Counted from the stretch's first letter, positions 19,020 to 39,334 are shown. The stretch is DNA of 39,334 bases from an uncultured Candidatus Saccharibacteria bacterium (GCA_964427335.1 CAYRSW010000001.1:18101-57434), one strand, 5' to 3'. Numbers and translations: made by a program. Notes: generated from the letters alone by a model not told the origin.

Positions 19020-19031
19020 TATTTTATTAGG

Positions 19032-21310: not shown

Positions 21311-21325
21311 TTATCAAACTGATAA

Positions 21326-22234: not shown

Positions 22235-22238
22235 ATAT

Positions 22239-23111: not shown

Positions 23112-24570
23112 AACTTTTTTCCGTGAGAAAATAAAGACTCCTGTTTTTGGTGTGGGGGTCTATGCTTTTAATCGGCTGGGGTTGGCTGATGTTATTCCTG
23201 ATTTTAGAGTTTTAGCTTTGCGTTACAGTCTAGATACCGAGCTTATAGAAAAGGACATTGAAGTTTTTCCGCTTGAGAAAGGAATGGGGACTAAGCATAT
23301 CAAGGAGCCAAGGAATGCTACTACTGTCATAAGGCATCCACGGACCGAAAAATATTTAAGAAAATTTAAAAACCCAGCATTAATTGTTTATAAGTCTTCT
23401 TCCCGGATGGAAAAGGTCTGTCAGCAGCGCGGCTGGAATTTAGTTGCCGTGCCGGTAAAGTTTGGCAAAACCTTATTTGAAAATAAAGTAAAATTCCGGA
23501 GAATTCTAGAAGAAATTGGTGTTCCTGTTCCACCGGGCAGAATTAAAAAACCTCAAGCTCTTCACTATGGTCATTTGATGAATAGTTATGGGCTACCTTT
23601 TGTAATCCAACATCCGACCCGAGGAGGAGGAAAGGGAACATTTTTTATCAGAAACAAAGATGATTTTGACCAGGCTTTAAAAAAATTAAGAATAAGAATA
23701 AAAGAAGGCCAGGAATTACCCGCTAAGGAGCCAGAGGAAGTGATTGTTACTCGCTTTATCAAGGGGCCTTCGCCAAGTATTACTGGTTGTGTCACCCGTC
23801 ACGGGATTTTGTCTACTTGTCCTCAAATACAGATTTTGGATATCCCCGAACTTTTTAACCCGGAAAGAGGTTCGGGTCTTTTTTGCGGTCATGACTGGGA
23901 TTATCATTTAAGCGAGGACATTAAGAGACAAGCATATAGTATTGTGGAGAAGATAGGAAAATATTTTCAATCACAAGGATATAAAGGGATTTTCGGCCTG
24001 GATTTCGTTATGGACGAAAAAGAAGAAAAAATTTATGTCATCGAAACTAATCCCCGATTGCTGGCAACATTTCCTACTATCACTATGGTTCAAATTAGAA
24101 ATAATGAACCTCCCATTATGGCTTTTCATCTTTTAGAATATTTAAATATTGATTATGATATAGACATAGCCGAGATTAACCGATTGATAAGGCAATCAAA
24201 GCAAGGAGCCCAGGTGTTTTTGCATAATCTTACGGGAAGATGGACGAGGAATTGTGGGGAGATTAGGGCCGGTGCATACCGGCTAAATCCAAAATTAGAA
24301 TTTGTTCGTCCTGGCTACGCGTTAAAGCATTTGAAGAATGAAGACGAGTTTTTAGTTACTGAAGGAGTGTCTTTCGGAAAATCTCATTTTAGCCCCAACC
24401 GGCGGCTCTGTCGGATTCTCACCTTAAAGGGGGTCCTAGAGGATTATACTAAACTAAATGATTGGGGCCGAGAAGTGGTTACCCAAGTCTATCAAGCCCT
24501 AGATATAAGGCCAGTAAAATTTATTAAATTAAGAAAATTCTTTTCCCCACATTTTTTAGCGAAAGGGTAA
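23086..24570 (+). CDS. large ATP-grasp ligase with N-terminal pre-ATP-grasp domain
   Basis: LPFVIQHPTRGGGKGTFFI, VIVTRFIKGPS, GIFGLDFVMDEKEEKIYVIETNPRL. 26-nt overlap with the previous gene. Confidence 0.7.
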   Translation: MIKDIETLKTFFREKIKTPVFGVGVYAFNRLGLADVIPDFRVLALRYSLDTELIEKDIEVFPLEKGMGTKHIKEPRNATTVIRHPRTEKYLRKFKNPALIVYKSSSRMEKVCQQRGWNLVAVPVKFGKTLFENKVKFRRILEEIGVPVPPGRIKKPQALHYGHLMNSYGLPFVIQHPTRGGGKGTFFIRNKDDFDQALKKLRIRIKEGQELPAKEPEEVIVTRFIKGPSPSITGCVTRHGILSTCPQIQILDIPELFNPERGSGLFCGHDWDYHLSEDIKRQAYSIVEKIGKYFQSQGYKGIFGLDFVMDEKEEKIYVIETNPRLLATFPTITMVQIRNNEPPIMAFHLLEYLNIDYDIDIAEINRLIRQSKQGAQVFLHNLTGRWTRNCGEIRAGAYRLNPKLEFVRPGYALKHLKNEDEFLVTEGVSFGKSHFSPNRRLCRILTLKGVLEDYTKLNDWGREVVTQVYQALDIRPVKFIKLRKFFSPHFLAKG

Positions 24571-24579
24571 AGAGGAATT

Positions 24580-25032
24580 ATGGAGATTAAAAGAGTTATT
24601 ACTAAAAAAAAAGCAAAAGAGGTAGCTGCTTTAATTAACAAATATGCCGGATTTCCTCTTAGGAGAAGATATAATGACATTATCTCTAAAAAAGATAGAG
24701 TTTTCTTTGCTGGATTTTATAAAAGCAGGCTTGTTGGTTGTATTGGAGTAAAAAAAGATTACTTTTATTCTTCTGAGCTGATTAATCTTTGTGTAAAACC
24801 TGAATTTGGGCGTCGGGGTTTTGGTACGAAACTGATTTCAGAAATGACAAAAAGGTTCGGCGAGAAAAGGCCAATATTCTTCAGCACGATAAGAGAAAAA
24901 AACATTGCTTCTCAAGTATTATTTAGAAAACTTGGCTTTAAGAAAATAACCGAGTTCACAAATCCTGAAACCGGCCATAAACTCGGTTTATATTTTTTAA
25001 ACTATCAAAAACAACATGTACATAGGCATTGA
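24580..25032 (+). CDS. GNAT-family N-acetyltransferase
   Basis: 150 aa. Motif A LCVKPEFGRRGFGTKLISEM, then a FRKLGFK-type C-terminal region. Confidence 0.8.
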   Translation: MEIKRVITKKKAKEVAALINKYAGFPLRRRYNDIISKKDRVFFAGFYKSRLVGCIGVKKDYFYSSELINLCVKPEFGRRGFGTKLISEMTKRFGEKRPIFFSTIREKNIASQVLFRKLGFKKITEFTNPETGHKLGLYFLNYQKQHVHRH

Positions 25033-26510: not shown

Positions 26511-27738
26511 AGGTTTTGATTAATTTTATTTTTATAAATCGTCGTTTTCCCACTTGCACTACTATCCCATCTTTTATCTTAATCACTTTCTTCCAATCCT
26601 CAACTATTTTATCATCAATTTTTACTCCTTTTTGCTGGATTAATCTTCTGGCTTCGGCTTTAGAGGGAACCATTCTTAGCTTCACCAATAAATCTAAAAT
26701 ATTACAACTCGTAATTCTTAATTCATGATTCCTAATTTTAGACGGCTTCTTGCCGGTTTTAAATATCCTCTCAAACTCTTTTTCTGCTTCCTGTGCCTTT
26801 TTGGCCCCACAATATATGGTGACGATTTCTCGGGCTAATCGTGCTTTAGCGTCTCGAGGATTAAGTTTTTTAGATTTCAGCCCTTTTTTAATTGAGTCAA
26901 TTTCTCTAAGAGAAATTTCAGTGCATAGCTCGAAACAAGTAATAATAACTTCGTCTGGTAAGGCCATTATTTTACCATACATTTCTTTAGGAGAATCGTC
27001 TAGGGCAATAAAACTACCTTCACTTTTACTCATTAGTTTCTTGCCCGTCTTAGGGTTGACCAGAAGTTTGGTTGTAATAACAAACTTTTCTTTATTTTTG
27101 TAGACCTTCATCAAATCCCTACCAACCAACATATTAAAAGTTTGGTCATTTCCTCCTACTTCAATATCAGCATTTAATGCTACGGAATCATAGCCTTGCA
27201 GTAGAGGGTAAAGGAATTCGTGCAAATAAATTTCTTCTTTTCTTTTTAACCGCTGCTTAAACATATTTCTTTTAATTATCTGCTGGTAGGTGAAATTAGA
27301 GGCTAGTTTATTGATTTCTTTGAGGGTTAATCGTTCAAGCCACTGACTGTTAAACCTGAGTTCCGCTGGGTTTTTAGATGAGTTAAAATTTAGAAATTTT
27401 CCTACTTGTTTCTGGTAGGTTTTAGAGTTGTCCCGGACTTCTTCTTCTGTTAAAGCTTTCCTGGCTGTTAATCTTCCCGTGGGGTCACCGATACGAGCAG
27501 TGAAATCACCAATGAGAAGAACGACCCGATGTCCTAACTTTTGAAAATCCCTTAAAAGAAAATAATTAGTTGAGTGCCCCAAATGCAAATGCGGAGCAGT
27601 AGGATCTACTCCATGGTAAATAGCCAGTCTCTTTTTTGACTCTAGCAATTCTTTTAGGGTTTCTTTAGAGGGATAAATTTTTTCTATTCCTCTATATCTA
27701 AGAATTTCTTTAATTTTAGCCGGAGTTATGTCGGTCAT
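26503..27738 (-). CDS. tyrS: tyrosine--tRNA ligase
   Basis: YHGVDPTAPHLHLGH (HIGH), KLMSKS (KMSKS), C-terminal S4-like domain SKAEARRLIQQKGVKID. Confidence 0.93.
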   Translation of the reverse strand: MTDITPAKIKEILRYRGIEKIYPSKETLKELLESKKRLAIYHGVDPTAPHLHLGHSTNYFLLRDFQKLGHRVVLLIGDFTARIGDPTGRLTARKALTEEEVRDNSKTYQKQVGKFLNFNSSKNPAELRFNSQWLERLTLKEINKLASNFTYQQIIKRNMFKQRLKRKEEIYLHEFLYPLLQGYDSVALNADIEVGGNDQTFNMLVGRDLMKVYKNKEKFVITTKLLVNPKTGKKLMSKSEGSFIALDDSPKEMYGKIMALPDEVIITCFELCTEISLREIDSIKKGLKSKKLNPRDAKARLAREIVTIYCGAKKAQEAEKEFERIFKTGKKPSKIRNHELRITSCNILDLLVKLRMVPSKAEARRLIQQKGVKIDDKIVEDWKKVIKIKDGIVVQVGKRRFIKIKLIKTYA

Positions 27739-27871
27739 GTTTCCACTATATCAAATTCTACTTAAAAACACAATTTTTACATAGTTCTCTTTTCTCTTTC
27801 CTCTTTCTTCTTTCCTATCTCCTATCTCGTTTAAACCTCATTTAAGAGCTAGATCTCTCTTAGCTTCTTTT

Positions 27872-27908
27872 CTTTATATTCTAGACGACCGCACTCATTA
27901 TAAGAGAA
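27872..27908 (-). repeat. 37-nt repeat copy M1; contains the -10 TATAAT of the tyrS promoter
   Basis: Minus-strand reading TTCTCTTATAATGAGTGCGGTCGTCTAGAATATAAAG, 28/37 identical to copy M3. Confidence 0.8.
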
Positions 27909-27940
27909 AATTTTGTAAGGAAAGCGGGGGTAGATATTAT

Positions 27941-28798
27941 TTATTTTTTTGTATTCTTTTGGTTGTTCTCTTTCTGTTCTGCTTTTTTACTTCGTTGAAG
28001 AATTTTTTGGTAAAGTTTATAGGCTTTCTTGCCATACCAATCATCGGGTAAAAGATCTCCTGGTAACTGTGGATCATCTTTTAAGATATTCAGATATTCC
28101 ATTTGTATTTTAAGTTTATCAACTTTAAGCTCCTCTACTTTTTGAGAAAGTTTTTTATATTTAGAGAAGAATTCTTTATATTTTTTGTTAATTTCTTCAA
28201 GGTGCCAAACTCGACCGGCTAATTCCTGGGAGTCTTCCCGGCCTAGTTTATTGGTAACTGAAGGGATAACCCAACTTTCCATATTATGAAACTCAACTAA
28301 ACTCTCAATATTGGCTAGAAAATTGTAAGGAGAAATCCAAACACTGTCTTGGAGCCGACCAAAGCCTAATTTCTTTAATTTTTCTCTGAAGGCATTTCTT
28401 TTTATTCTCCGATCTTCCGGGATGTCAAAGGCTACTATATACCATTTATCATCCCAGGTGGATGGTTTTTTGTACTCAGGCAAAATACTCTTTAGTCTTT
28501 TCCATCCCTCTTTAGTTAATTTCCAATCTGGATCAAGCCAACCTTTTTCTCTTAGTTTATAAAAGTTACGATATAGCGTATTTGGATCGTAACCTCCAAG
28601 CCGTAAATCCAACCTTTTCATCATAGACATTGATCCCGCGGAACCTAGAGGACTGATTTCTTCTGCAAATCCTACCCAAAGAAGAATAAAATCTTCTAAA
28701 CTGCGGACTAGCCCAGAACTTAATTTAATAACTTTTTTCCTAATCGGTCTCCTTTTGGATTTTACTTTCTTGTTTTTATTTTTTATTCCTTTTTGCAT
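27941..28798 (-). CDS. PaaX-like transcriptional regulator (winged-helix + Cas2-like core + helical C-domain)
   Basis: LYRNFYKLREKGWL (wHTH-like) and WDDKWYIVAFDIPEDRRIKRNAFREKLKKLGFGRLQDSVWISPYN (PaaX/Cas2-like ferredoxin core). The start is moved to the internal ATG 28798 (MQKGIKNK) because the consensus promoter lies inside the longer track ORF. Confidence 0.6.
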   Translation of the reverse strand: MQKGIKNKNKKVKSKRRPIRKKVIKLSSGLVRSLEDFILLWVGFAEEISPLGSAGSMSMMKRLDLRLGGYDPNTLYRNFYKLREKGWLDPDWKLTKEGWKRLKSILPEYKKPSTWDDKWYIVAFDIPEDRRIKRNAFREKLKKLGFGRLQDSVWISPYNFLANIESLVEFHNMESWVIPSVTNKLGREDSQELAGRVWHLEEINKKYKEFFSKYKKLSQKVEELKVDKLKIQMEYLNILKDDPQLPGDLLPDDWYGKKAYKLYQKILQRSKKAEQKENNQKNTKK

Positions 28799-28810
28799 TG
28801 TTTTATTTCT

Positions 28811-28847
28811 TTTTCTTATACGATATGCGGTCGTCGGTATTGTAAGG
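28811..28847 (+). repeat. 37-nt repeat copy M2 (inverted relative to M1 and M3), inside the 5' UTR of the PaaX-like gene
   Basis: Plus-strand reading TTTTCTTATACGATATGCGGTCGTCGGTATTGTAAGG, 27/37 identical to M3. Confidence 0.8.
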
Positions 28848-28855
28848 TTATCTGT

Positions 28856-28885
28856 ATTATAAGAGAAGTTATAGAAATGTGTCAA
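28856..28885 (-). promoter_or_regulatory. consensus sigma70 promoter of the PaaX-like gene
   Basis: Minus strand TTGACA (28885-28880), 18-nt spacer, TATAAT (28861-28856). Predicted 5' UTR of about 50 nt. Confidence 0.7.
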
Positions 28886-28983
28886 GGATTTTAGATTTTG
28901 TTTTTCGTTTTTTGTGTCAGTTTTTTAGATGTATTTTAAAATAGTTTGACAGGGATCGATGAGCCTCGTTTTCTCTCCTTTTT

Positions 28984-29020
28984 CCTTATATCCAAGACGA
29001 TCGCATAGTGTATAAGAGAA
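28984..29020 (-). repeat. 37-nt repeat copy M3
   Basis: Minus-strand reading TTCTCTTATACACTATGCGATCGTCTTGGATATAAGG. Confidence 0.8.
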
Positions 29021-29264
29021 TAAAGAATAAAAAATAAAAAACTGACTCTGCGTAAGATGAGATACATAGATAACACCTTGAAAATTAAAAATGAGAGGCC
29101 CTATTACCAGAGAAAAATCGTTGTGGGTTATCAACAATAAGAGTATAGCTGTTTGGTGGAAGGATAATTTCGCCCTGATGTAAGCTTAAACCGTGATTAA
29201 CGTCATCTTCATAAAATCTCCAACCAGTTTAATCATGTTTGAGGTATCATCTCCATATTATACA

Positions 29265-29295
29265 CAAAAAATACCAAAGCTCAAACCTCTGGTAT
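29265..29295 (-). terminator. intrinsic terminator ending the long minus-strand T4SS-like operon
   Basis: Minus-strand RNA AUACCAGAG, 7-nt loop, CUUUGGUAU (9 bp, one G-U), followed by UUUUUU. Confidence 0.65.
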
Positions 29296-29332
29296 TATTT
29301 TTACGCCTCCACGGGTTACGCACTACTCTACT

Positions 29333-30535
29333 CTATTCCATATATATCGACTCTGCCTGAATAGAATACAATTTTCCGTCTCTTTGGTTGGTGAAGAAGA
29401 GGGTATCTTCTTCTTTGGACAAAAAGAGATTAGTAGCGTCGTAGGACACTGCGAAATCTTCAAGAGTAATAAGTAGAGTTTTTTCGCCGGTGGTAGTGTT
29501 TATTTTGAAAAAACTGTCTTGAGTGGAGACTCTTCTGGCGTACCAATCATCAGGTATAACAATATCGTCCCTAAGCGGTGCGGGTACAGCGCAAAAGAGA
29601 GTAATGTTATCTTCGGACCAGACACATTTTTCAACAATAGTTGGAGTTTCTAATCGTTTTATTCCATATACCCCCTCTCCAATTAAAGCCAGTTCGGTTA
29701 GAGTGCCGGCTCGGTAAACAGTGTAGGAAATAATTGCAACATTTCCTTCGGGCGACCAGAGGATGTTAAGACCGTAATAACCGCCGATAACATGAATTGG
29801 CTTCCCGCCGTCAAGAATTATACTATTAATAGATGATTCTTGATAGCCGCTGGGAATGGGATAAAAAGAAACTTTATTCTTTTTTGGGATAGGGGTAAGT
29901 TCTGCTTTTATAGCGTAGGAAAGAATTTCTTTATAATTTGTTCCATCGGGGTCGGAAACATAGATGCCGCCCGACCTTTTTTCCAGGTCGGTATATTTAT
30001 AAATAATTTTATCCTGCTCCGGATGCCAGATGGCAGCAGTGATGTGTTTATCTAAAGCCCAAGTTTTGCCAGTAGCTTGGTCGTAAGAATAAAATCGTTC
30101 TCCCCCGGTTTTGGAATCGTAAGAGGCGATTAGAGCTTTATCTTTATCTTTAGACCAGAGGACTTTAGTTAAATCCCCTACTGCTCCAAGAGAAAGTTGT
30201 GCTGTCCCGCTTCCGTCTGGTTGGGCTTGCCAAATATTGCCTTCTTTTGGGTCAAAATATTTTATTTTATCTGTTTTATCCAAAATAGCGCCAATAGTTT
30301 GTTTTTCAGCTAAGGATTCAAGGCCCTTAATTTCTCCTTCGGCTTCTTCGGCAACTTCTCCTTCTTTGGGCACAAATTCTCTTTCTTCGGCTTCCGGGAG
30401 CTTAGCTTCCCCCCCTTTTTCTGTAGTTGGTGTTGCCTCCGGCTTTTCTTGGACCAACCAATTATAAACCAGCATACCGATGATGAGTACAAATAGGGCG
30501 ATAATACTAATAATGAGGATTTTTTTAGTATTCAT
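29333..30535 (-). CDS. membrane-anchored secreted beta-propeller protein (TolB/PD40-like repeats)
   Basis: N-terminal TM ILIISIIALFVLIIGMLVY, Glu-rich linker, repeated ...PDGS/DPDGT... blades (QAQPDGSGTAQLS, YVSDPDGTNYKEI, WSPEGNVAI). Confidence 0.55.
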   Translation of the reverse strand: MNTKKILIISIIALFVLIIGMLVYNWLVQEKPEATPTTEKGGEAKLPEAEEREFVPKEGEVAEEAEGEIKGLESLAEKQTIGAILDKTDKIKYFDPKEGNIWQAQPDGSGTAQLSLGAVGDLTKVLWSKDKDKALIASYDSKTGGERFYSYDQATGKTWALDKHITAAIWHPEQDKIIYKYTDLEKRSGGIYVSDPDGTNYKEILSYAIKAELTPIPKKNKVSFYPIPSGYQESSINSIILDGGKPIHVIGGYYGLNILWSPEGNVAIISYTVYRAGTLTELALIGEGVYGIKRLETPTIVEKCVWSEDNITLFCAVPAPLRDDIVIPDDWYARRVSTQDSFFKINTTTGEKTLLITLEDFAVSYDATNLFLSKEEDTLFFTNQRDGKLYSIQAESIYME

Positions 30536-30540
30536 TTTAT

Positions 30541-31389
30541 TTATTCGACATACCCTTTACATTCATGTGCTGATCTATCTCTGCACTCCCAATGTTTTCC
30601 TTCTTCTCCTCCAAAATCTGCACCAGGATCAAAGCAGGATTTACGGCAGGCCTCTAAAGTTTTACAACCTCCCGAATACTCCCCTCCGTATCTTTTTGTC
30701 CAGCACAGATAGACTCCCCGGCAAGATTCGTTCTCTTTACTACATTTATCAGATTCAGCACCTGCTACTCTTTTGCATATACCATCGGTTGGGTCGCAAT
30801 ATAGGTACGTACTGCAAGGTCTCCCTGCCTCTGCACAGTCACTCGCGCCTGCCTTTCCCATTATTTTTTCACATATTCCTGTTGTCTGATTACATTTATA
30901 ATAAATACAACTTTCTCCTACACTCGTACAATTATCTTCATCTCCTTGGTTTTCTTGTTCATTAGGGAATCTTTTACATGCATAGCCCTCGCCACAGGCT
31001 AAATGAGTATTTGATTCAGGTAGTTCTATTTCTGTAACAGTTAATTTTTTTAAACTAACCAATTCGGGATTGATAGTGTGTAGGATTAGCCAAGAGGTAA
31101 GGACTAGAACTAGACCGAGGATAGCGCTGGTAATCTGACCTTTGGCCTCAGAGATTTCCGCTTCATTCCCAGCCGCAGTCATATACCTGATGCCGCCAAT
31201 AATGATAAATAGCATGGCAATAACGCCGACAATAGCCAGACCAAAGAGATAAAGAGCTTTAATATAATCGCTGATGTCGGTGATTTCTCCAGCGCCAGGA
31301 ATAGGAACCATTGGTTCGTAACCCAGAGCGGGTGTTGCCAATAGAAAAGTCGTGAGGACCATTAGGATAATAAAGATAAGTTTTTTCAT
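30541..31389 (-). CDS. VirB2/TrbC-like T4SS pilin core fused to a C-terminal 18-cysteine domain
   Basis: Signal peptide MKKLIFIILMVLTTFLLATPALG and two hydrophobic helices separated by IRYMTAAGNEAEISEAKGQ (pilin-like hairpin). The last ~150 aa hold 18 Cys in repeated C-x6-C-x4/5-C-x6-C units. ATG 31389 gives an ATGA overlap with the upstream stop. Confidence 0.55.
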   Translation of the reverse strand: MKKLIFIILMVLTTFLLATPALGYEPMVPIPGAGEITDISDYIKALYLFGLAIVGVIAMLFIIIGGIRYMTAAGNEAEISEAKGQITSAILGLVLVLTSWLILHTINPELVSLKKLTVTEIELPESNTHLACGEGYACKRFPNEQENQGDEDNCTSVGESCIYYKCNQTTGICEKIMGKAGASDCAEAGRPCSTYLYCDPTDGICKRVAGAESDKCSKENESCRGVYLCWTKRYGGEYSGGCKTLEACRKSCFDPGADFGGEEGKHWECRDRSAHECKGYVE

Positions 31390-34300
31390 TGTTTTTTTCT
31401 TCTTCCCGGATAACTCCAAGGTCTTGTTAACGAGAATACAACGGCCATTAGGGCAAGTATTCCTAACCCAGCCAATCCTATTTTAAGAGCTAACTTAAAA
31501 GATTCAGGAATGAAGAAGCCGACAGCGGCAAACATTGAACCGAAGAAACCGAGAGTCATTTCTTTACACACTCCGTCTTCGCAGTTTCCTGAACAGCAAT
31601 CTTCGTTAGTGCTGCAGTTTTCTCCTACTACCTTACAGGGAGTCTCTACTACCTCTAAAATTATTTCATCAGTCGCTTTTCGGCCGGCTGGGTTTTTATC
31701 ATCTCCTATTGCTGCGGCGGCAAGACCAACTGTATATCGCGAGCCCCTTTCTTTTGCTACCAGCAAGGTAAGAAATTTTCTATCTGCGCTCAATCCGGCT
31801 GAAATTCCCAGTGTTGCTAAATCTTCACTTGGTACTTTCGCTCCATCAATAGCCCAGCTATAGGAAAGAGAACCATTAGCAAAAGTTGAATTTATTGGCC
31901 CCGGGGAAGCCTGGAGAGTTATCATGTCTTCGGTTCTTACATCAGCAATAACCAGCGGCGTAGTCGGTCTTCTGGTATCAGGGATAGGGATAATTTTTAC
32001 ATCCGGCGCATAGACAAAGAGCTCTACTTCTTTAGTGGCAGTCTCTGTTCCATCAATATTAGTCCCCGTCACCTTTAGTTTATACTTACTTCCGGCCGGT
32101 TTATCCACCACTAGTCGGAATTCCTGCGGACTGCCCGGGACGTTCTTTTGTCTTTGGCCGTCCAAATACCAGACATAAGCGCAGTAGCTAGCCGGATTAT
32201 CAACATTTTCTTTAGTGCACTCAAAAGTAGGTTGAGCTGTTACGGTGAAAATATCTCCGGATAAAAGATTAGGCGGCTGTGTACCGTGGTTGAATTGAAG
32301 TTCAATTTTACTGCCTGCTTCAATAATTAACTTTCCAGAGGCCTTTCTCTTTTTATAATCCTCCACTCTTTCTGCAGCAAATACCTCTACTCTGAATGTT
32401 CCCGAAACCGCCGGTGTAAATTTGAAAGTCCTCCTTCCCTCTAAGGGCCCACTGCCGCCTGGCGGCTCAAGGCCAGTAGCTTGGTCAGCGATGCCTATAA
32501 AGTCACCTGTTGTAGTGTCTTTATAGGTCAAGACCCAGTTGTAGAAAAGATGATTATAATCTAATTGAGAAAAATAAGGAGTAGCGAATATCTCTACCGG
32601 TTCGCCAACAGAAGGATAGAGACCTTCAGTAGAAAGCTTTACTTCCAGCTCTTTTACTTCTTCTGACTCAATATATAATTTGAAATATTGATAGATGGTT
32701 TTACATATTTCAACATGAACAGATTTTTCTTTTGCTCGGCAAACATCAGCATCTGTGTCAGTAGCATTTTCTCTTTCCTCGTAGGTTCCACTGCCTATCC
32801 AGCAGGCTGGCCATTCATCCATTTGGTCTCCATCAGCAAGATTTTCTAGAGGTCCCCATTCAGCCGGGCAGTCAGCAGATTTTACGTCAGTTAATTCTTC
32901 GCCGCTTAAAGCAATGTAGGTTTTGTCAGGACAATTAACTATTTGTTTTTTCTGAGAAATACCTAAGGCAAGGGTGTCTAATCTGTAATATTTAACATCT
33001 TGAGGTAAATCCTCGGGGACAGTGAAGGTTATTTTACTCTGTCCCAAGCCAATTATGTCCTGTTCGTCTCTATACCCATCTTCATCCGTATCTCCTTTAA
33101 TCGGGCTAGAGCCAAAAACATATTCTTCGTAATTAGTCATGATTCCGTCTCCGCTTTTGTAATAAGTATCAGTTACTGGATTATAAGCATCCGGGGCAAT
33201 GTTTCGAGGAGAAGAAGGGAGTTGGGAAGGTTGTTCCGTGTATGTGCTAGGAGCCGACTCTGGCGGTGCATGAGGCCAGTCGTAGCTACGATTAACCTCG
33301 GTTATATGAGCCAATAGACCTGCGTCTTCAGGTGCACACCCATAGCCATTCCAAGCATACATACCATAACCATCTTTTTGCGTTCCAATGCCATATTCTT
33401 GCCAGACTTGCAGCATATCGTCCACGATACCCGTGGGATTTAACTGACCTCCATTATAAAATGCCTGCACAATTGCTGTTCCTCCAATCCCGCCACTGCG
33501 ATCCCCGCAGACATTACAGGAGTTACGCAAGCGGGGCTCCCAATTGGGAGTATCTCTGTGGTAAGGATAGGCATCAAAACCAGCGTGGTCAAAGGCGTTA
33601 GGATTCCAATTTGCCTCATCTTCGATATGAGCTGAAAAAACTGTAAACAAATCATGGTTGGGGTCCGCGGCTTTAATGGCATTATACCACTCCTGTTGCT
33701 TTGCCCCAGAAAAAGCGCTGCCTTTTATGTCGGGCTCATCCAAGAAATACCAGGCTGCCACTGCTGGATGATTCTTCCAGCGATTTACAAAATTAATAGC
33801 ACCACTTAAATCGATATGGTCTTTATCGTAAAAATAGGCGTGAAGGTCAGGTATTACCCATAAACCTTTAGCTAAACATTCATCAAGGAGGGCTTCTGTT
33901 GGGGTTACATAACAGCCAACAGTATTAAAACCTGCGGCAAGGATATCATCTACGTTGAATCCCCAAGCATAAGCGAGCTTAACACCATCCCAAGTGAATG
34001 CTCCTCCTGATGAGGAAGCAGAGCCTTGGTAGGAAAATTTTGACACCTCACCATAGATGGCAATATCTTTATGGGCGTACACCCTTACTTTAAGAGAGTA
34101 AGTTCCGTCATATTCGGCTGTGTAAGCGCCGGGACCATTGATGACTCTGGGTCCGGAGTCCACATCAGTCGGGTCTGGATTATAAAGAACATAAATTGCT
34201 CCGTCGGAGGTTCCCTTTTCTGGAAAATCCATTATTTCTGCAGGAAACGTTACTTCGGCTTGTCCGCCCCTTCCACCTTCACCGCCTTCACCGCCGGTAC

Positions 34301-35195
34301 CGCCTTCACCGCCGGTACCGCTGCCAGAACCAGTATCTCCTTCTCCCCATCCGCTTCCACCACTTCCACCCTCTCCTCCTTCTCCACCTTCTCCGGCTCC
34401 ACCACCCTCTACTTCAGTTGATGGATAATAAGTGATAGTGCCGCTTAATTCAATCTCATCTCCCTTTTTAAGAGTAAAAGTTACTCCGGCGTGCCAACTC
34501 TCTCCAACGCACCCTTCTTCTATAATATTTCCAAGTTCATCATAAATCTTATATGGCGTACAATGAGCTGTGACAGAGGCGATTACCCCTTTTGTCATAA
34601 TAGAGCCGCTTGTATTACTAGTACTCTTAGCTATATATCCATCTTCATCAAAATCTTCATCGGGGCCGTGAGAAAGGTCGCCGAAATAGAACATTTCCCA
34701 ATCGTCATCCATTCCGTCTCTATCAGAGTCACGAGTGGTAGTTCTTGTTACCACCATACTATCAGCATGGTATTTCCATTCAGGTGAGCCGAAATTGGCA
34801 TCAGCATAATCCATAATATAGAAAATTCCATAATCGTTTTTAAGTCCCGGTACTGCTGGGAGGGCTGGGTCTAGCTTAGAGACATCGGGAACAAAGAAAA
34901 GTTCATCACCGGCCATAAGCGGCTGGATGCTGGTGTTATTTATAAACCACATATAATAGAGGTCATCTGTTTTGCCGGTATAGTATAAAGCAGTAGCAAA
35001 CACGCTTACCTCATCGCCTCTTTTTGGTTCGGTAGGGACAGTTTTGAAATCCACTCGCGGCCAAGGATTCTGCCTAAGGTTTTCTATTTTTCCTTCTCTT
35101 ATCCCCTTTTTGTAATAATGGCTAAAATCACAGCCGCTGAAGAGGGTGATAGCCAGGATGATAAGGATTAGGAATGTGAGTTTTCTGGTTGACAT
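31386..35195 (-). CDS. 1269-aa multidomain surface lipoprotein (Ca-binding TSP3-like motifs, Gly-rich linker, TIM-barrel glycosidase-like region, Ig/PKD-like repeats, knottin-spaced Cys motif, C-terminal TM anchor)
   Basis: Lipobox-like LFSGC. DSDRDGMDDDWE and GDTDEDGYRDEQD. GGX tract at aa 261-312. WGFNV...FNTV...WYFLDEPD (clan GH-A-like). Recurrent Y-x-W-x-hydrophobic Ig-like signatures. PCKVVGENCSTNEDCCSGNCEDGVCKE. Two terminal hydrophobic helices. Confidence 0.6.
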   Translation of the reverse strand: MSTRKLTFLILIILAITLFSGCDFSHYYKKGIREGKIENLRQNPWPRVDFKTVPTEPKRGDEVSVFATALYYTGKTDDLYYMWFINNTSIQPLMAGDELFFVPDVSKLDPALPAVPGLKNDYGIFYIMDYADANFGSPEWKYHADSMVVTRTTTRDSDRDGMDDDWEMFYFGDLSHGPDEDFDEDGYIAKSTSNTSGSIMTKGVIASVTAHCTPYKIYDELGNIIEEGCVGESWHAGVTFTLKKGDEIELSGTITYYPSTEVEGGGAGEGGEGGEGGSGGSGWGEGDTGSGSGTGGEGGTGGEGGEGGRGGQAEVTFPAEIMDFPEKGTSDGAIYVLYNPDPTDVDSGPRVINGPGAYTAEYDGTYSLKVRVYAHKDIAIYGEVSKFSYQGSASSSGGAFTWDGVKLAYAWGFNVDDILAAGFNTVGCYVTPTEALLDECLAKGLWVIPDLHAYFYDKDHIDLSGAINFVNRWKNHPAVAAWYFLDEPDIKGSAFSGAKQQEWYNAIKAADPNHDLFTVFSAHIEDEANWNPNAFDHAGFDAYPYHRDTPNWEPRLRNSCNVCGDRSGGIGGTAIVQAFYNGGQLNPTGIVDDMLQVWQEYGIGTQKDGYGMYAWNGYGCAPEDAGLLAHITEVNRSYDWPHAPPESAPSTYTEQPSQLPSSPRNIAPDAYNPVTDTYYKSGDGIMTNYEEYVFGSSPIKGDTDEDGYRDEQDIIGLGQSKITFTVPEDLPQDVKYYRLDTLALGISQKKQIVNCPDKTYIALSGEELTDVKSADCPAEWGPLENLADGDQMDEWPACWIGSGTYEERENATDTDADVCRAKEKSVHVEICKTIYQYFKLYIESEEVKELEVKLSTEGLYPSVGEPVEIFATPYFSQLDYNHLFYNWVLTYKDTTTGDFIGIADQATGLEPPGGSGPLEGRRTFKFTPAVSGTFRVEVFAAERVEDYKKRKASGKLIIEAGSKIELQFNHGTQPPNLLSGDIFTVTAQPTFECTKENVDNPASYCAYVWYLDGQRQKNVPGSPQEFRLVVDKPAGSKYKLKVTGTNIDGTETATKEVELFVYAPDVKIIPIPDTRRPTTPLVIADVRTEDMITLQASPGPINSTFANGSLSYSWAIDGAKVPSEDLATLGISAGLSADRKFLTLLVAKERGSRYTVGLAAAAIGDDKNPAGRKATDEIILEVVETPCKVVGENCSTNEDCCSGNCEDGVCKEMTLGFFGSMFAAVGFFIPESFKLALKIGLAGLGILALMAVVFSLTRPWSYPGRRKKQ

Positions 35196-35234
35196 ACGAA
35201 TTTTAATGCGAATTTAATGCGGATTATGCGAATT
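35196..35234. repeat. four direct RCGRAT repeats at 9-13 nt spacing between the 124-aa gene stop and the lipoprotein start codon
   Basis: ACGAAT (35196), GCGAAT (35209), GCGGAT (35220), GCGAAT (35229), embedded in TTAATGCGAAT / TTAATGCGGAT / TATGCGAAT. Confidence 0.7.
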
Positions 35235-35236
35235 GT

Positions 35237-35611
35237 TTACTTGAAGAGTAATTGTAGGCCCTTCCAAATTGCCCAAGGACCCTGGGCGAGAGCAGCAAAT
35301 ATTGACTCTTTTGCTTCTGGGACAAGACTAGCTACTCCGATTAACACAACTATAACTATTATAACAAGACATCCCCAAAAACCAATAAAGCCAACTACTG
35401 CCCCACCAATAGTTACAACTATCCATTTAGTGGTAGCCATAAGAGCTTTAAGGAAAACTTTTTTAAAAGCTTTTAAGGCAAGTTCTTTTGCTTTTTCAGC
35501 TGCCTTTTCAGCTATTCTTGCTCTTGCCTCTTCTGCTAATGTGGCGAGCCGAGACTGCCTTCTTTCTTCTTCTAATTTTTCATACTCTTCATACTTTTCT
35601 TCCTCATCCAT
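35237..35611 (-). CDS. small membrane protein: acidic/coiled-coil N-terminus plus two TM helices, function unknown
   Basis: 124-aa ORF in the operon frame, 4 nt after the virB4-like stop. WIVVTIGGAVVGFIGFWGCLVIIVIVVLIGV. The overlapping plus-strand ORF 35217-35633 is judged spurious. Confidence 0.5.
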   Translation of the reverse strand: MDEEEKYEEYEKLEEERRQSRLATLAEEARARIAEKAAEKAKELALKAFKKVFLKALMATTKWIVVTIGGAVVGFIGFWGCLVIIVIVVLIGVASLVPEAKESIFAALAQGPWAIWKGLQLLFK

Positions 35612-35615
35612 GTTT

Positions 35616-37418
35616 TTATCCTTCCCTCGCTAATTCCTCCTTTGCTCTTTCTATCTCCAGAAGTTGGGCTGGGTCAGTGGTAATTACCTGGTCTTCAGAA
35701 TAGGAAGCGACCACTTTAATAGCCGCTCGTTTGAGTCCGGCGAAAAATATTCCCTCGCCAATATTTGACTCAAGCAGCAAATATTTTTCTTCATCAGAAA
35801 GATAAAACGTTTGAGCCACCAAATCTACAGAGGCCGGAGACTGTTTCATTAAAACTTGCAAAGAAGAATTGGTAATAATTGGTTTTCCATAACGACTTTC
35901 AAGAAAATCGGAAACATCTTGAGTAATAGTTGTTACCCCCAGGTAATATTTTCTTGCTCTTTTGGCAATGCCAAAGAGAAAAGAAGCCGACTCTTCATTT
36001 CTCATCATCCACCAAGCTTCGTCAATAACAAGGATTCGTTTTTTAAGCTCCCTCCTGACAACATTCCAGATGTAATGAAGAATTACATACATAGCCATAG
36101 GTCTTAGCACTTCTTCCATATCTCTAATACTGAAGACCACTAACTTTTCTTTAATGCTGACATTGGTTGGCATATTAGCAAATCCTGCAAAAGTACCGGT
36201 AGTATATTTTTTGAGTCGTTCTATTAGAGATTCCGCGCCTTTCATTCCTTTTAATACTTTTTCAAGGTCGGACATAGTCGGAGGAGTTGCTTTAGAGAAG
36301 TCACTCTCCCCAGTTATATCTTTTAGGGCATAAGTTTGATACAATGCCTCGTCGATTAAGGACTCTTCTTTGGGTGAAAGCCCGCCAAGCATTAATTTTA
36401 AAAGCCCGGTCAATTCTATGATATTAGCCCTCAAAATATCAGCAGGGGATTCTTCTTCAGAAGCTTGGGGAAGGTCAAATGGATTAAGATGTGCCCGAGA
36501 TGTAAGCGATATGGGGATAAAACTTCCTCCGGCAACTTCAGCCACGTACTTATATTCATTTTCCGGGTCAATAACAATAATTTCAGTATCAAGCATTAAG
36601 CTTCTCAAAATTTCTAACTTAATGGCGTATGATTTTCCGCTTCCGGCTTTCCCGAACAAAGCCATGTTCGCATTTTCCATGGAAAATCGGTCAAAGAGGA
36701 TAAGGGAGTTATTGTGACGGTTTATTCCATAAAGAACTCCTTGGTCGGAAGTGAGGTCTGAAGAAACAAAAGGAAAAGTAGTAGAAAGAGAACCGGTGCT
36801 CATATTATTAGAAATTGCCAGCTTATCTAAGCCAAGCGGCAAGGTGGAGACAAACCCAGGTTTTGTTTGAAAGATTGCCTCCTTTGTGTAAATGAGTCCT
36901 CCGGAAAGTATGGATATTACTTGAGAGCTGGTTTTATTAAGCTCTTTTAAAGAATCAGCGTAAACGGTTATATAAAGAGAGTACCTGAAGAATCTTTCAG
37001 TGCCCTGCTGGAGCATATCTCTTAAAGATTCGGCATCTTCGTAGGCAGTTTCAAGCATTGGGTCTCGAACCATTCCTTTTTCTCGATTCATAATAATCTG
37101 TGATTCAATCTGCGCTACCTTCTTTTTGAGATTTTTTAAAATTATGTGAGTTTCCGCCGGATGGATGAACATAGCAATGTCCATACCGGCGTCCAAATTA
37201 ATAACCGGAGAAAACCAGGTAGTTTGGAGATAGCGAGGGTAAGTATAGATAAAGAGAGTTCTTAAAAATTTTGAGCCAATCCTTATGTAATTAGCATTAA
37301 CCTTTAAGGCAGAAGGAGCGAGGATATCCTTAAGAGTTGCTACTCCTTTATAGTAGATTTTCTCTGCCTCTAAAAGTTTAGCTTCCTCTTTGGTTCTTTT
37401 GATTTTGAGTTTAATCAT
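35616..37418 (-). CDS. virB4: VirB4/TraE-type type IV secretion ATPase
   Basis: Walker A LFGKAGSGKSY, Walker B ILVIDEAWWMM, RKYYLGVTTITQ. N-terminal DILAPSAL...YIRIG...RTLFIYTYPRYL typical of Gram-positive VirB4 homologues. Confidence 0.85.
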   Translation of the reverse strand: MIKLKIKRTKEEAKLLEAEKIYYKGVATLKDILAPSALKVNANYIRIGSKFLRTLFIYTYPRYLQTTWFSPVINLDAGMDIAMFIHPAETHIILKNLKKKVAQIESQIIMNREKGMVRDPMLETAYEDAESLRDMLQQGTERFFRYSLYITVYADSLKELNKTSSQVISILSGGLIYTKEAIFQTKPGFVSTLPLGLDKLAISNNMSTGSLSTTFPFVSSDLTSDQGVLYGINRHNNSLILFDRFSMENANMALFGKAGSGKSYAIKLEILRSLMLDTEIIVIDPENEYKYVAEVAGGSFIPISLTSRAHLNPFDLPQASEEESPADILRANIIELTGLLKLMLGGLSPKEESLIDEALYQTYALKDITGESDFSKATPPTMSDLEKVLKGMKGAESLIERLKKYTTGTFAGFANMPTNVSIKEKLVVFSIRDMEEVLRPMAMYVILHYIWNVVRRELKKRILVIDEAWWMMRNEESASFLFGIAKRARKYYLGVTTITQDVSDFLESRYGKPIITNSSLQVLMKQSPASVDLVAQTFYLSDEEKYLLLESNIGEGIFFAGLKRAAIKVVASYSEDQVITTDPAQLLEIERAKEELAREG

Positions 37419-37422
37419 AGGC

Positions 37423-38076
37423 CTATTCCTCTATTTCCAATTGGCTTATTTCTGCCATTCCTTTTTCGTGCGGTAGCCCTGGATTATAAAGAGTGTAAAA
37501 AAGTTCGATTAGCTCTTGGGTATTAAGTGGTGCCATCCTAACACCCACTCCTTCTAAGTTCGTTACTACGTGCTCTACTCTCTGGAGAAGTTGGTCCTTG
37601 TATTTGGCAAATCTTTCCTTTTTGAGTTTTGCTACCTTTATTGAGCCTAAAAAAACCTTTAATTTTTCTGGGAGCCCTTCTCTTTTTGCCTCTATAGGCG
37701 CAAAAGGTACCACTACATAAAAAGTCTTTTTCATAATATTCGCCATCTCAACTAGTCCCCGGATAAACTCTCTATATTCGGCTGTTTGAATTTTAAGGAG
37801 TTCATTAGTTTGGCTTTTTTCTCTTTCTTCTAAAGTTTCCAGATACGGGGTGATGTTGAGCCGACGGGAATTAATTACTATTTGGACGGGAAAATCTAGC
37901 GAATTTAGGAAGGACTGGTAATGATAAATAATTGCTTCTTGCTCTTTAGTAGATTTCAGAGCAAAGTTTATTGCCGAAGTCATAAGGATTATTCTAAGCG
38001 TACCGTCTTTGAGAACAACGGTTCCTTCCTTTATTTCTTCAATGTCCAAAAATTGTTGAGTAGAACCAGGTTTCAT
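37423..38076 (-). CDS. soluble T4SS-associated protein; N-terminus resembles the N-terminal region of some VirB4-family ATPases (tentative)
   Basis: FLDIEEIKEGTVVLKDGTLRIILMTSAINFALKSTKEQEAIIYHYQSFLNSLDFPVQIVINS. ATG 38076 (MKPGSTQQ) gives an ATGA overlap with the PrgI-like stop. Confidence 0.4.
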   Translation of the reverse strand: MKPGSTQQFLDIEEIKEGTVVLKDGTLRIILMTSAINFALKSTKEQEAIIYHYQSFLNSLDFPVQIVINSRRLNITPYLETLEEREKSQTNELLKIQTAEYREFIRGLVEMANIMKKTFYVVVPFAPIEAKREGLPEKLKVFLGSIKVAKLKKERFAKYKDQLLQRVEHVVTNLEGVGVRMAPLNTQELIELFYTLYNPGLPHEKGMAEISQLEIEE

Positions 38077-38477
38077 AGTTGTTTCTTTCCCCCCGTATCC
38101 AATGTCCATGCTAAATCCTTTAATCTACTTTGACTTACAATCTTCAAGGGCTCTTTAGAGGGAGAAGGTTTTGCCCCCTTTTTAATTTTTGGCGCTTGGG
38201 AAGTCCTTTTAAAAAGATAGAACTTTGGTTGAACAAAAAACTGTGATATGGAGGAAAAATATGCAGAAAAAGACCTACCATAGGGTTTGTAAAAGGCAAA
38301 AGCAGCGCAGATTATAAGTATCGGCAGGCCCAAAAGAAAGGCAAGGGCGACGGAAACGAGATAGGCAAGAAAGATAAATATACCTATTCCAGCAGCCAAA
38401 AAGGCAAACTGCTTTAAGGTTAAAGGTCCGATAATCTTATCTTCTACCTCAATGAATTTTGGAACAGTATATTGCAT
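38073..38477 (-). CDS. PrgI-family (VirB3-like) T4SS membrane protein
   Basis: MQYTVPKFIEVEDKIIGPLTLKQFAFLAAGIGIFIFLAYL followed by a second TM. Start placed at the internal ATG 38477 because the upstream part of the track ORF is a structured GC-rich repeat region. Confidence 0.65.
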   Translation of the reverse strand: MQYTVPKFIEVEDKIIGPLTLKQFAFLAAGIGIFIFLAYLVSVALAFLLGLPILIICAAFAFYKPYGRSFSAYFSSISQFFVQPKFYLFKRTSQAPKIKKGAKPSPSKEPLKIVSQSRLKDLAWTLDTGGKKQL

Positions 38478-38487
38478 GTTTATAGAA

Positions 38488-38566
38488 GCGGAAAGACGCG
38501 GATAGTTCACCCGCCTAAATTTTTGTGAAGCAAAAACTTTGGCGGGCAAGCGCGGAAAGACGCGGA
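38488..38566. repeat. GC-rich intergenic element: 15-nt direct repeats flanking a 16-bp hairpin
   Basis: GCGGAAAGACGCGGA at 38488-38502 and 38552-38566. Hairpin CCCGCCTAAATTTTTG (38510-38525) / CAAAAACTTTGGCGGG (38531-38546), 14 of 16 paired. Confidence 0.8.
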
Positions 38567-38568
38567 AA

Positions 38569-39102
38569 CTATTCGCCTTTCAGATCCACTACATTTCCCT
38601 TTATTCTCGGTTTTACCTCCTCTGGCTTTGACGGTATTTCTGGCTTACTCGGGACTTCTGGGGGACGAATTGGAGATGGTTCGGCTTCGCCTGTCCTGAG
38701 CGGAGCCGAAGGGCTCACCATAGATGGTTCAGCTTTTTCTTTATGGATCTCTTTAAGTTCTTCGGAAATTTCGGCAAAGATTTGCTCATTAATATCTCGG
38801 GCAATAGCTTGAGCAATATCGGGAGCTACTCCTAATTTTTCTTCCAAGATTTCAGAAAATCCTTTTAGAGGGGTAATGCCTAAAAGCACTGTTCCGGTGA
38901 TATAAGAGCCAATCCAGAGTTGTTCGTGAGAGAGCTTATGATGCTTAAGTATAATTTCTCGGATTCTCTCTGCTGTTTTTGTGGCAAATAAAATATCTTG
39001 CACTTTCTGGGGCAATTGATAATAAAGAGTATATTTCCGTTTTATTTCGGGGTCGGAAATTCTTTTAAGAATTCTTATTTGGTCAGGCGTAAGTTTAGGC
39101 AT
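38569..39102 (-). CDS. hypothetical protein: helical N-domain plus Pro/Glu-rich C-terminal tail
   Basis: 177-aa ORF in the operon, 2 nt after the upstream gene. Tail PSAPLRTGEAEPSPIRPPEVPSKPEIPSKPEEVKP. Confidence 0.55.
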   Translation of the reverse strand: MPKLTPDQIRILKRISDPEIKRKYTLYYQLPQKVQDILFATKTAERIREIILKHHKLSHEQLWIGSYITGTVLLGITPLKGFSEILEEKLGVAPDIAQAIARDINEQIFAEISEELKEIHKEKAEPSMVSPSAPLRTGEAEPSPIRPPEVPSKPEIPSKPEEVKPRIKGNVVDLKGE

Positions 39103-39104
39103 AA

Positions 39105-39334
39105 TTAAGTTTCCTTTTCTTCTGTTGCTTTTTTAAATTCGGTTTCGGTGCCGGGGACGATTTTCTTTTCAGTCGGTCTTTCTTCAGTTCTAGTTCTTTT
39201 TGCTCTCTTTTTTCTCAATATTTCCTCTAATTCTTCCTTAGTGCCATAAACAGATTTAGCTGCATCGGACTCAAGCCACATTTGGACTTGGGGAGAGAAT
39301 TCTTTTTTATGAGGGACAACCACTTCATTTTTAA
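39105..39334 (-). CDS. hypothetical charged protein, possibly 5'-truncated by the window edge
   Basis: The track start at 39323 is a GTG, and the frame stays open to the window end. Confidence 0.35.
   Translation of the reverse strand, partial: KNEVVVPHKKEFSPQVQMWLESDAAKSVYGTKEELEEILRKKRAKRTRTEERPTEKKIVPGTETEFKKATEEKET

Follow-up and report, generated by a model that had tools for sequence, protein, structure and literature searches.

The 39,334-nucleotide stretch analysed here (the window; GCA_964427335.1, CAYRSW010000001.1:18101-57434, from an uncultured Candidatus Saccharibacteria bacterium) carries on its minus strand the 3' two-thirds of a chromosomal type IV secretion system (T4SS) operon, of the sort that the ultra-small CPR/Patescibacteria commonly have close to the replication origin. 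The genome is of the Paceibacteria/Parcubacteria kind. The ancestry of the operon lies in the conjugation machinery of monoderm bacteria, of the MPF_FATA type, and we consider it probable that this Patescibacteria-type system now serves epibiont-host contact and macromolecule transfer, not plasmid conjugation. All the marks of such systems were found together: VirB4, TrsD, PrgI, a VirB6-like protein and a pilin, no relaxase, and a housekeeping context. The Patescibacteria T4SS is believed to play a central part in the life of a very large share of bacterial diversity on other cells, and it has been reported as the sole T4SS that is essential for the growth of its own carrier bacterium.

An earlier reading of the DNA, made from the sequence alone (hereafter the sequence-only reading), had described at least nine co-directional genes running from the window edge to a terminator, and the map of open reading frames (ORFs) bears this out: nine ORFs, all in one direction, occupy the minus strand from 39334 down to 29333. 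They are given here in operon order, followed by the hairpin that closes the operon; HMM stands for hidden Markov model, TM for transmembrane, Ig for immunoglobulin, GH for glycoside hydrolase and AF2 for AlphaFold2.

39105..39334, minus strand: 3' end (last ~75 codons) of a predicted gene for a polytopic membrane protein, VirB6/TrbL-like; the frame is still open where the window ends, and the rest lies beyond
38569..39102, minus strand: p177, a conserved T4SS-linked protein with a helical N-domain, a Pro-rich linker and a conserved acidic C-terminal motif; no TM helix
38073..38477, minus strand: PrgI/VirB3-like small membrane protein, 134 aa; start ATG 38477, upstream TTG 38549 possible
37423..38076, minus strand: TrsD-like, detached N-terminal domain of VirB4; 217 aa, or 228 aa if the start is 38109; ATGA overlap with PrgI
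35616..37418, minus strand: VirB4 ATPase body, 600 aa, MPF_FATA/CD1110-like; curated HMM above cut-off
35237..35611, minus strand: tm124, a charged N-terminus plus two TM helices; TM segments 58-104
31386..35195, minus strand: surface lipoprotein, 1269 aa, an expanded member of an Ig-like-repeat family (sequence features and family HMM)
33216..34043, minus strand: inserted (beta/alpha)8 barrel, residues 385-660 of the lipoprotein, clan GH-A-like (AF2, Foldseek and profile)
30541..31389, minus strand: VirB2-like T4SS pilin, 282 aa, with a signal peptide, two TM helices and a ~172-aa Cys-rich C-terminal tail; ATGA overlap with the lipoprotein gene
29333..30535, minus strand: b400, a membrane-anchored extracytoplasmic beta-propeller; TM helix 3-27, disordered acidic linker ~33-69, propeller ~80-395
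29270..29296, minus strand: terminator-like hairpin at the operon end; 10-bp stem, 7-nt loop, then the T-run TTTTTGTGTAT

The junctions between these genes measure, in operon order, 2, 91, -4, 4, 4, 41, -4 and 5 nt, the negative values being ATGA overlaps at 38073-38076 (PrgI/TrsD) and 31386-31389 (lipoprotein/pilin). The tight joins of the sequence-only reading hold for the two overlaps and for the gaps of 2, 4, 4 and 5 nt; two junctions are wider than the 2-5 nt it had given, at 91 nt between p177 and PrgI (taking ATG 38477 as the PrgI start) and 41 nt between tm124 and the lipoprotein gene. The terminator that it placed at the operon end was recovered as the hairpin 29296-29270 with its T-run. 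A terminator scan of the whole window returned no more sites than shuffled sequence did, so it is the position of this hairpin that speaks for it. Rfam and tRNA scans of the window gave no matches.

The identity of the secretion core is well supported. VirB4 matches the curated model NF045971 (conju_CD1110) at 5.5e-113, with 378.7 bits against a cut-off of 325, over model positions 176-729; further Pfam matches are to PF19044 (P-loop_TraG, 5.5e-22), AAA_10 and CagE_TrbE_VirB, and the translation shows a Walker A motif (GKAGSGKS) and a Walker B motif (VIDEAW). Its homologues number in the thousands in Patescibacteria at 60-70% identity, the closest all being proteins of Patescibacteria metagenome-assembled genomes (MAGs). 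PrgI matches PF12666 (E=5.1e-10, 40.2 bits against a cut-off of 27) and has a hydrophobic segment at residues 18-66, so that both family assignments made before any database search have stood. Directly upstream of VirB4, across a gap of 4 nt, lies what had been left as a soluble 217-aa ORF of no assigned family. It can now be named TrsD: it matches NCBIfam TrsD (NF041427, 3.2e-6, below the curated cut-off), it covers positions 2-119 of conju_CD1110 and positions 102-261 of VirB4_plasma, and its orthologue in a sister contig has a precomputed match to PF26593 (TraC-like). Since the TrsD ORF and the 600-aa ORF match successive parts of the CD1110 model, VirB4 is encoded here in two pieces, as in systems of the pGO1 type.

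That sister contig (L081, taken from a 101,645-bp JGI metagenome contig, P0001, with a VirB4 99% identical) is collinear with the window, at a nucleotide identity of 97% in the core and 88-93% in the accessory genes, and it shows what lies past the window edge. The peptide of the edge ORF, ...HKKEFSPQVQMWLESDAAKSVYGTKEE..., aligns to the C-terminus of a 614-aa protein (L081:4178-6022) with about six hydrophobic segments and a precomputed match to PF19590 (TrbL_3). Seven of 26 orthologues of this protein match Pfam TrbL (PF04610; best E 1.3e-7). A live Pfam scan of the 614-aa protein itself found no match, despite the precomputed TrbL_3 record, and a profile of the VirB6-like family found no relevant match in the PDB. 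On this alignment the first "charged ORF" of the sequence-only reading is the predicted C-terminal tail of a VirB6/TrbL-like protein, whose gene is part of the operon and has its 3' end inside the window. The description of a minimal core that lacks VirB6 was an artefact, since the window edge cuts the VirB6-like gene. The cytoplasmic-membrane core is complete, with a VirB6/TrbL-like channel, PrgI/VirB3, and VirB4 split into TrsD and the ATPase body.

The pilin, too, was rightly recognised beforehand as a pilin-like protein with a Cys-rich domain. It matches PF18895 (T4SS_pilin) at 1.9e-11, with 44.3 bits against a cut-off of 26.6, and the pilin-like model NF045849 at 1.3e-7, and its tail holds 18 Cys in Cx6Cx4-5Cx6C repeats. 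It is the sole pilin-like ORF in the window; no second one was found. Among 65 pilin ORFs of relatives the tails range from 0 to 279 aa, and about ten of them are Cys-rich.

The genomic setting of the operon was established from a survey in which the ORFs of 81 related species-level loci were clustered; most absences of a family in this set are due to contig ends. The best 80 genome matches to VirB4 are all Patescibacteria MAGs, at 58-67% identity, and are labelled Paceibacteria/Parcubacteria, Kaiser-, Doudna-, Wolfe- or Campbellbacteria, or generically "Saccharibacteria". The conserved order is uvrD, ksgA, genes for proteins of 298, 304 and 537 aa, VirB6, p177, PrgI, TrsD, VirB4, a small multi-TM protein, a ~340-aa protein, pilin and propeller, after which come jag-yidC-rnpA, divergent from dnaA-dnaN. 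VirB4 is present in all 81 loci, TrsD in 73-78, PrgI in 70-76, the ~340-aa Ig-like family in 67, the pilin in 58-61, the beta-propeller in 59, and the VirB6-like protein and p177 in 55 each. PrgI stands directly upstream of TrsD in 76 of the 81, and the propeller gene is beside the pilin gene in 59. The synteny survey called for by the sequence-only reading has in this way returned a gene order conserved in 55-81 of 81 loci, and because both this order and the housekeeping synteny are kept, the operon appears to be inherited vertically and not as a mobile island.

These observations bear on whether the locus is an ordinary Gram-positive-type conjugative element, an integrative and conjugative element (ICE) or integrated plasmid, with genes for relaxase, coupling protein and integrase a short way past the window edge. 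The parentage of the parts would fit: VirB4 passes the cut-off of a CTn2-type (CD1110) model, the PrgI, TrsD and pilin-like models derive from conjugative elements, and the window ends inside the operon. In L081 the operon starts ~3.6 kb past the window edge, the VirB6-like gene being preceded by genes for a 292-aa protein with an N-terminal TM helix (u292) and a 302-aa lipoprotein-like protein (u302), neither of which has a Pfam match. Beyond these two small envelope proteins L081 has Band_7 and PMT_2 genes, which are transcribed divergently, before the contig ends. There is no complete conjugative module in this 7.6 kb, and no relaxase, coupling protein or integrase was found in it. Nor did relaxase, type IV coupling protein (T4CP) or integrase families match in Pfam among the annotated ORFs of the window (at least 90 aa outside the operon), no conserved neighbour family among the 81 loci matched a relaxase or integrase, and VirB1 homologues were not found in the window or in the 7.6 kb upstream in L081. 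A T4CP-like gene occurs within 10 kb of virB4 in just one of the 81 loci (L068:428-3196, minus strand, 923 aa; DUF87, TraG-D_C and T4SS-DNA_transf). The claim that VirD4, relaxase and VirB1 are lacking holds for the window and the L081 upstream region alike. The operon has a GC content like that of the rest of the window, which has no tRNAs, and the housekeeping synteny of the 81 species-level genomes fits vertical inheritance. A published survey counted 15 relaxases close to virB4 among about 2,474 cases (PMC12102498). An ICE is accordingly very unlikely.

That the apparatus builds a contact structure or filament instead of a conjugation machine had been suggested in the sequence-only reading. 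No relaxase or T4CP was found in L081, and 80 of the 81 loci have no T4CP-like gene within 10 kb. A non-conjugative contact role is still the best reading. It is not new, because a non-conjugative contact role was proposed by Wang et al. (2023), by Quiñonero-Coronel et al. (2025) and in a 2025 FEMS review.

Comparison with the sister strain also speaks to whether the operon is a decaying, non-functional remnant of a conjugation system, which might be supposed from a VirB4 split into two ORFs and from the absence of relaxase, T4CP and VirB1. Protein identities are 99.3% for VirB4, 99.5% for TrsD and 98.5% for PrgI, then 91% for the beta-propeller, 88% for tm124, 86% for p177, 84% for the lipoprotein and 69% for the pilin, the last over residues 1-185 only. 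The core genes have a ratio of nonsynonymous to synonymous substitution (dN/dS) of 0.04-0.09, and tm124, p177 and the genes for surface proteins one of 0.23-0.43. Purifying selection acts on every gene, and the operon is on that account taken to be functional. Moreover, the division into TrsD and VirB4 is itself the conserved state (78 of 81 loci) and is shared by pGO1-type systems, every ORF and the Walker motifs are intact, and the homologous system of Southlakia epibionticum was found essential (PMC10633639). A remnant is extremely improbable and, like the ICE reading, was rejected.

It is the exposed parts of the operon that diverge fastest between the sister strains. The distal Cys-rich tail of the pilin aligns weakly, with an indel within it, and positions 30533-31035 have no nucleotide match in L081. 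Synonymous divergence (dS) is itself uneven, at 0.02-0.05 for trsD and virB4 (35616-38076) against 0.16-0.71 for the genes of PrgI, p177, tm124, lipoprotein, pilin and propeller. Such a pattern points to recombination having left the operon a mosaic, and it suggests that lineages have recently exchanged the ATPase segment in this way. A separate mosaic junction was seen directly downstream of the operon (window ~27080-29360 against L081 15737-16386). TyrRS is there 52% identical to that of the sister strain, compared with 95% for the neighbouring DJ-1 and 99% for VirB4, and the window alone has a PaaX-like gene with a Cas2-like domain (27941-28885) and ~450 bp of non-coding DNA (28886-29332).

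The 1269-aa protein was first proposed to be a lipoprotein, and this is upheld: LFSGC22 resembles a lipobox, and residues 1232-1259 form a C-terminal TM helix. Between these lie Ca-type DxDxDG motifs (residues 156, 181 and 702), a linker rich in Gly and Glu (~262-312), a GH-A-like barrel (~405-640), Ig-like modules (~860-1180) and a 6-Cys knot (1187-1210). PDB matches of the linker were to artificial GS-linker constructs and were dismissed, and conotoxin matches of the Cys knot fell below threshold and are a resemblance of pattern. The majority of relatives have, between VirB4 and the pilin, one small multi-TM protein and one secreted or anchored protein of ~340 aa. The HMM of this ~340-aa family (44 of 51 slot proteins) matches the lipoprotein at E=2e-8, over residues 71-93, 863-892 and 983-1124, so the 1269-aa protein is best taken as an expanded form of a standard operon component. 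Signs of an Ig-like fold in the family are BiPBP_C matches in 9 of 30 members and a match to phage Hoc (3shs_A, 5e-5). A homologue of the full 1269-aa type is detectable in 2 of the 81 loci. A first homologue search with the whole protein, probably dominated by low-complexity words, returned 2 matches, and an exhaustive representative search returned 319. The view that two large adhesin-like proteins make this operon unusual therefore needs dividing: an Ig-like protein (67 of 81 loci) and a propeller (59 of 81) are standard equipment, and it is the expansion to 1269 aa that is lineage-specific.

Into this expanded lipoprotein a (beta/alpha)8 barrel is inserted, one that recurs in many otherwise unrelated proteins in the exhaustive search. 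The AF2 model (predicted local distance difference test, pLDDT, 90.2; predicted template modelling score, pTM, 0.87) has eight strands and eight helices. Foldseek matched it to GH2 beta-glucuronidases (1e-8) and to a GH158 structure (9p26, TM-score 0.60), and the family profile found GH158 (9oro_A, 1.6e-16) as well as GH5 and GH2; the 1269-aa window protein itself matched no GH family in Pfam. Like the clan GH-A enzymes (GH158 endo-beta-1,3-glucanase, GH2 beta-glucuronidase, GH5), the barrel has the (beta/alpha)8 fold, a Glu after beta4 in an xEP motif, an aromatic residue after beta6 and Trp/Tyr after beta8. It differs from them in having DEP, not NEP, and a Gln instead of the catalytic nucleophile Glu that ends beta7. 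The DEP motif, D486-E487-P488, falls just after beta4 (strand 97-102 of the model), in the acid/base position, and is conserved as D in 31 of 31 sequences and as E and P in 30 of 31. Gln577, placed by strand position, ends beta7 (model strand 188-193) in a column where 28 of the 31 family members have Q and one has E. Of the two catalytic residues of the clan, the acid/base Glu after beta4 is present and the nucleophile Glu at the end of beta7 was not found. Substrate-assisted barrels that cleave N-acetylhexosamine (HexNAc), such as GH20, typically have an Asp-Glu pair and no protein nucleophile. By analogy the barrel could be a substrate-assisted HexNAc-cleaving enzyme, or else a non-catalytic glycan binder. 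Some barrel homologues (P0189, P0191, P0194 and P0198) are fused to C2H2/Di19-type zinc-finger or zinc-ribbon segments, odd company for an extracytoplasmic glycosidase-like domain.

The beta-propeller assignment of b400, already made from the sequence, is confirmed by an AF2 model from 51 sequences (pLDDT 88, pTM 0.79) and by Foldseek matches in the PDB to tricorn, Drp35 and TolB at about 1e-10; its homologues have faint PD40/TolB-type Pfam matches. Two smaller proteins complete the operon. A p177 homologue lies between VirB6 and PrgI in 55 of the 81 loci by clustering (cluster 6), and phmmer detects it in 38; P31, L57, G75, D173 and E177 are invariant. Pfam, NCBIfam and PDB searches with p177, as a single sequence or as a 23-sequence profile, gave no match. 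For tm124, Pfam and NCBIfam matches are sub-threshold (DUF6249; CD3337/EF1877 at E=0.013), and among the 81 loci a homologue was found in L081 alone. Most related loci have a multi-TM ORF of 120-250 aa in the same position after VirB4; homology of tm124 to this common small-TM family was rejected (hhalign probability 1.4%).

These parts can be assembled into a tentative working scheme. VirB4, docked on VirB3 and VirB6, would pull the pilin out of the membrane, and the extracted pilin would polymerise into a conjugative-type pilus or tube across the cell's own wall. In F-type pili the pilin C-terminus faces outward, and C-terminal epitope fusions are tolerated. With the same orientation here, the Cys-rich tail would coat the filament as a contact surface. 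The lipoprotein, with its Ig-like and GH-A-like domains, and the propeller may bind or remodel polysaccharide, either in the host envelope or in the cell's own wall, and might take over the tasks of a VirB1 hydrolase and a PrgB-type adhesin, both of which are missing. So assembled, the apparatus would serve epibiont-host contact and macromolecule transfer, which might be an export of effectors or an uptake of macromolecules from the host.

The uptake of host material deserves separate mention, since the VirB4/VirB6 translocon and its pilus might take up host DNA, RNA or other macromolecules, as Helicobacter ComB and the Ced system of Crenarchaeota do, and so feed an organism unable to make nucleotides. 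Import needs neither relaxase nor coupling protein. VirB4 weakly matches NCBIfam CedB (9.9e-15, far below cut-off), a ComEC gene lies near the locus in four relatives, comF/recG/radA are nearby in class ABY1 (PMC12102498), and a 2026 preprint connects the acquisition of host RNA by parasites with a monophyletic VirB4 and putative T4SS pili. Yet the direction of transport is not readable from the genes, the CedB similarity is the generic similarity of VirB4 and HerA, and in S. epibionticum deletion of comEC ended competence and not viability, whereas the T4SS is essential (FEMS review). A dedicated import machine is in our judgement unlikely, and it overlaps in any case with epibiont-host contact and transfer as set out above, in which direction is left open.

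An organelle for adhesion only, with pilus and surface proteins attaching the cell to its host or substrate and no translocation, would likewise explain why no coupling protein is in view, why the surface parts diverge fastest between sister strains, and why there are so many binding-type folds (Ig-like repeats, beta-propeller, Cys-rich knobs and Ca-binding DxDxDG motifs). It leaves unaccounted for the strict conservation of a VirB6-like channel protein with VirB4; moreover, Patescibacteria already adhere by type IV pili, and a PilB-like ATPase is encoded in the window. We regard pure adhesion as quite doubtful.

Contact with transfer stays the preferred reading, and several points weigh against it. 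The system is known in this organism from its genes alone. The upstream view in L081 stops 7.6 kb from VirB4, and a T4CP gene might lie beyond the 39 kb of the window; in other parts of Patescibacteria genomes homologues of T4CPs are frequent, with 5,713 in 2,918 genomes (PMC12102498). The 172-aa tail may not fit helical packing, and the protein might then be a minor or tip pilin, or one that does not polymerise. Any enzymatic activity of the modelled barrel is uncertain because Gln stands where the nucleophile Glu is expected, and homology gives no support to tm124 as a part of the secretion machine.

Operons of the Paceibacteria-type lineage encode a conserved extracytoplasmic set, made up of an Ig-like-repeat protein, a beta-propeller and tailed pilins. 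Because these proteins diverge fastest between near-identical strains, they are candidate determinants of host specificity. A stronger form of this idea, which we put forward as speculation more apt to be wrong than right, is that the T4SS operon carries a fast-evolving host-recognition cassette: a tail-coated pilus, an Ig-like/barrel lipoprotein and a propeller that would engage or cut the host envelope, set the host range and replace the functions of VirB1, VirB5 and PrgB. If this were true, the tail indel between strains with 99%-identical VirB4 would reflect an arms race with hosts.

The remainder of the window is housekeeping DNA and includes genes for a PilB-type ATPase, RuvB, PBP1, two Wzy_C proteins, jag, yidC, rnpA, dnaA and dnaN, together with YebC, RuvC, an ATP-grasp cluster, ROK, DJ-1, TyrRS and the PaaX-like gene. 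The features of the origin neighbourhood are as follows.

12405-12893, minus strand: jag/KhpB
12883-13614, minus strand: yidC
13832-14170, minus strand: rnpA
14536-15918, divergent from jag-yidC-rnpA: dnaA
16099-17226, divergent from jag-yidC-rnpA: dnaN

GC falls to 0.28 at 15-16 kb and the cumulative GC skew has its minimum at ~13-14 kb, which together with the dnaA region places the T4SS operon ~13-25 kb from the likely oriC; rnpA, yidC, dnaA and dnaN are ~15-20 kb from the operon within the window. Elsewhere, a run at 18340-25032 encodes a 7TM_transglut membrane protein, five consecutive ATP-grasp proteins (including ATPgrasp_ST plus Zn_protease, RimK-like, YheCD-like and ATP-grasp_3) and a GNAT acetyltransferase, and has the look of a cluster for peptide ligation or surface modification. 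The motor of type IV pili, a PilB/T2SSE-type ATPase that has an MshEN domain, is encoded at 1644-3290, and two tandem Wzy_C (O-antigen-ligase-like) genes stand beside a Polysacc_synt flippase at 8352-10951; these add further envelope and host-contact functions to the same 39 kb. As for the other end of the operon, the three co-directional genes that precede VirB6 in most relatives (16-44 of 81 loci; for example L010:208-1818, L054:82-993 and L061:2244-3137) are probably part of it. The 298-aa protein has no match, the 304-aa protein a bacterial TSP3 repeat, and the 537-aa protein CHB_HEX_C_1/Fn3_assoc domains. The 292- and 302-aa proteins of L081 look unrelated to these three.

The closest published description is the survey of Patescibacteria T4SSs by Quiñonero-Coronel et al. 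(2025, Microb Genom, PMC12102498), which reports a monophyletic, MPF_FATA-related VirB4, with TrsD as its most abundant partner, PrgI/VirB3 and VirB6 present and VirB2-like pilins near virB4, a coupling protein rarely nearby, and T4SS genes near dnaA, dnaN, rnpA and ksgA. The system in the window agrees with the survey in its MPF_FATA-related VirB4, adjacent TrsD, PrgI/VirB3, VirB6-like protein and PF18895 pilin, in having no relaxase or T4CP nearby, and in its chromosomal place close to dnaA/dnaN/rnpA. It differs in arrangement, the operon of the related loci mostly abutting jag-yidC-rnpA directly and that of the window lying ~15 kb from dnaA. The parts of the survey consulted here name just homologues of known T4SS components; they report that no PrgB-type adhesin was found, and the words "propeller" and "TolB" do not occur in them. 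The conserved Ig-like-repeat protein, the beta-propeller, p177 and the C-terminal tails of the pilins, all characterised here, are not named there. The system itself has thus already been described, and the novelties are modest ones: a GH-A-like insertion without its nucleophile and a hypervariable Cys-rich pilin tail.

Set beside the Firmicutes MPF_FATA systems (pGO1 trs, pCF10 prg/pcf and CTn2 CD1110), the operon shares a VirB4 above the CD1110 cut-off, the division into TrsD and VirB4 seen in pGO1, and the PrgI of pCF10. It departs from them in that no relaxase, T4CP (PcfC/TrsK-type), VirB1-like SLT/CHAP hydrolase or PrgB adhesin was found; nor, of the further marks of a conjugative element, was there an oriT in the window or L081, or an integrase Pfam match or tRNA in the window. 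It has, conversely, a VirB2-like pilin, and Gram-positive systems are without one.

Experimental work on a related system comes from Wang et al. (2023, Cell, PMC10633639), who found by transposon sequencing (Tn-seq) that SEML1_0006-0019 of Southlakia epibionticum ML1 (Saccharimonadia) are essential for epibiotic growth, noted pilins and the lack of relaxase and coupling protein, and suggested protein export or another role. The 2025 FEMS review repeats these findings and the non-conjugative reading, and the 2026 preprint describes tubular structures at the parasite-host interface, suggested to be T4SS pili. The Southlakia locus resembles the one described here in its Gram-positive-like subunits and pilins, in having no recognisable relaxase or coupling protein, and in the non-conjugative role proposed for it. 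The two organisms belong to different classes, and the loci differ: Southlakia has an array of six short, divergent pilins, and genes for peptidase/lysozyme follow its virB4, whereas the window has neither enzyme and instead encodes one long, Cys-rich-tailed pilin, the GH-A-like barrel lipoprotein with its Ig-like module, and the beta-propeller.

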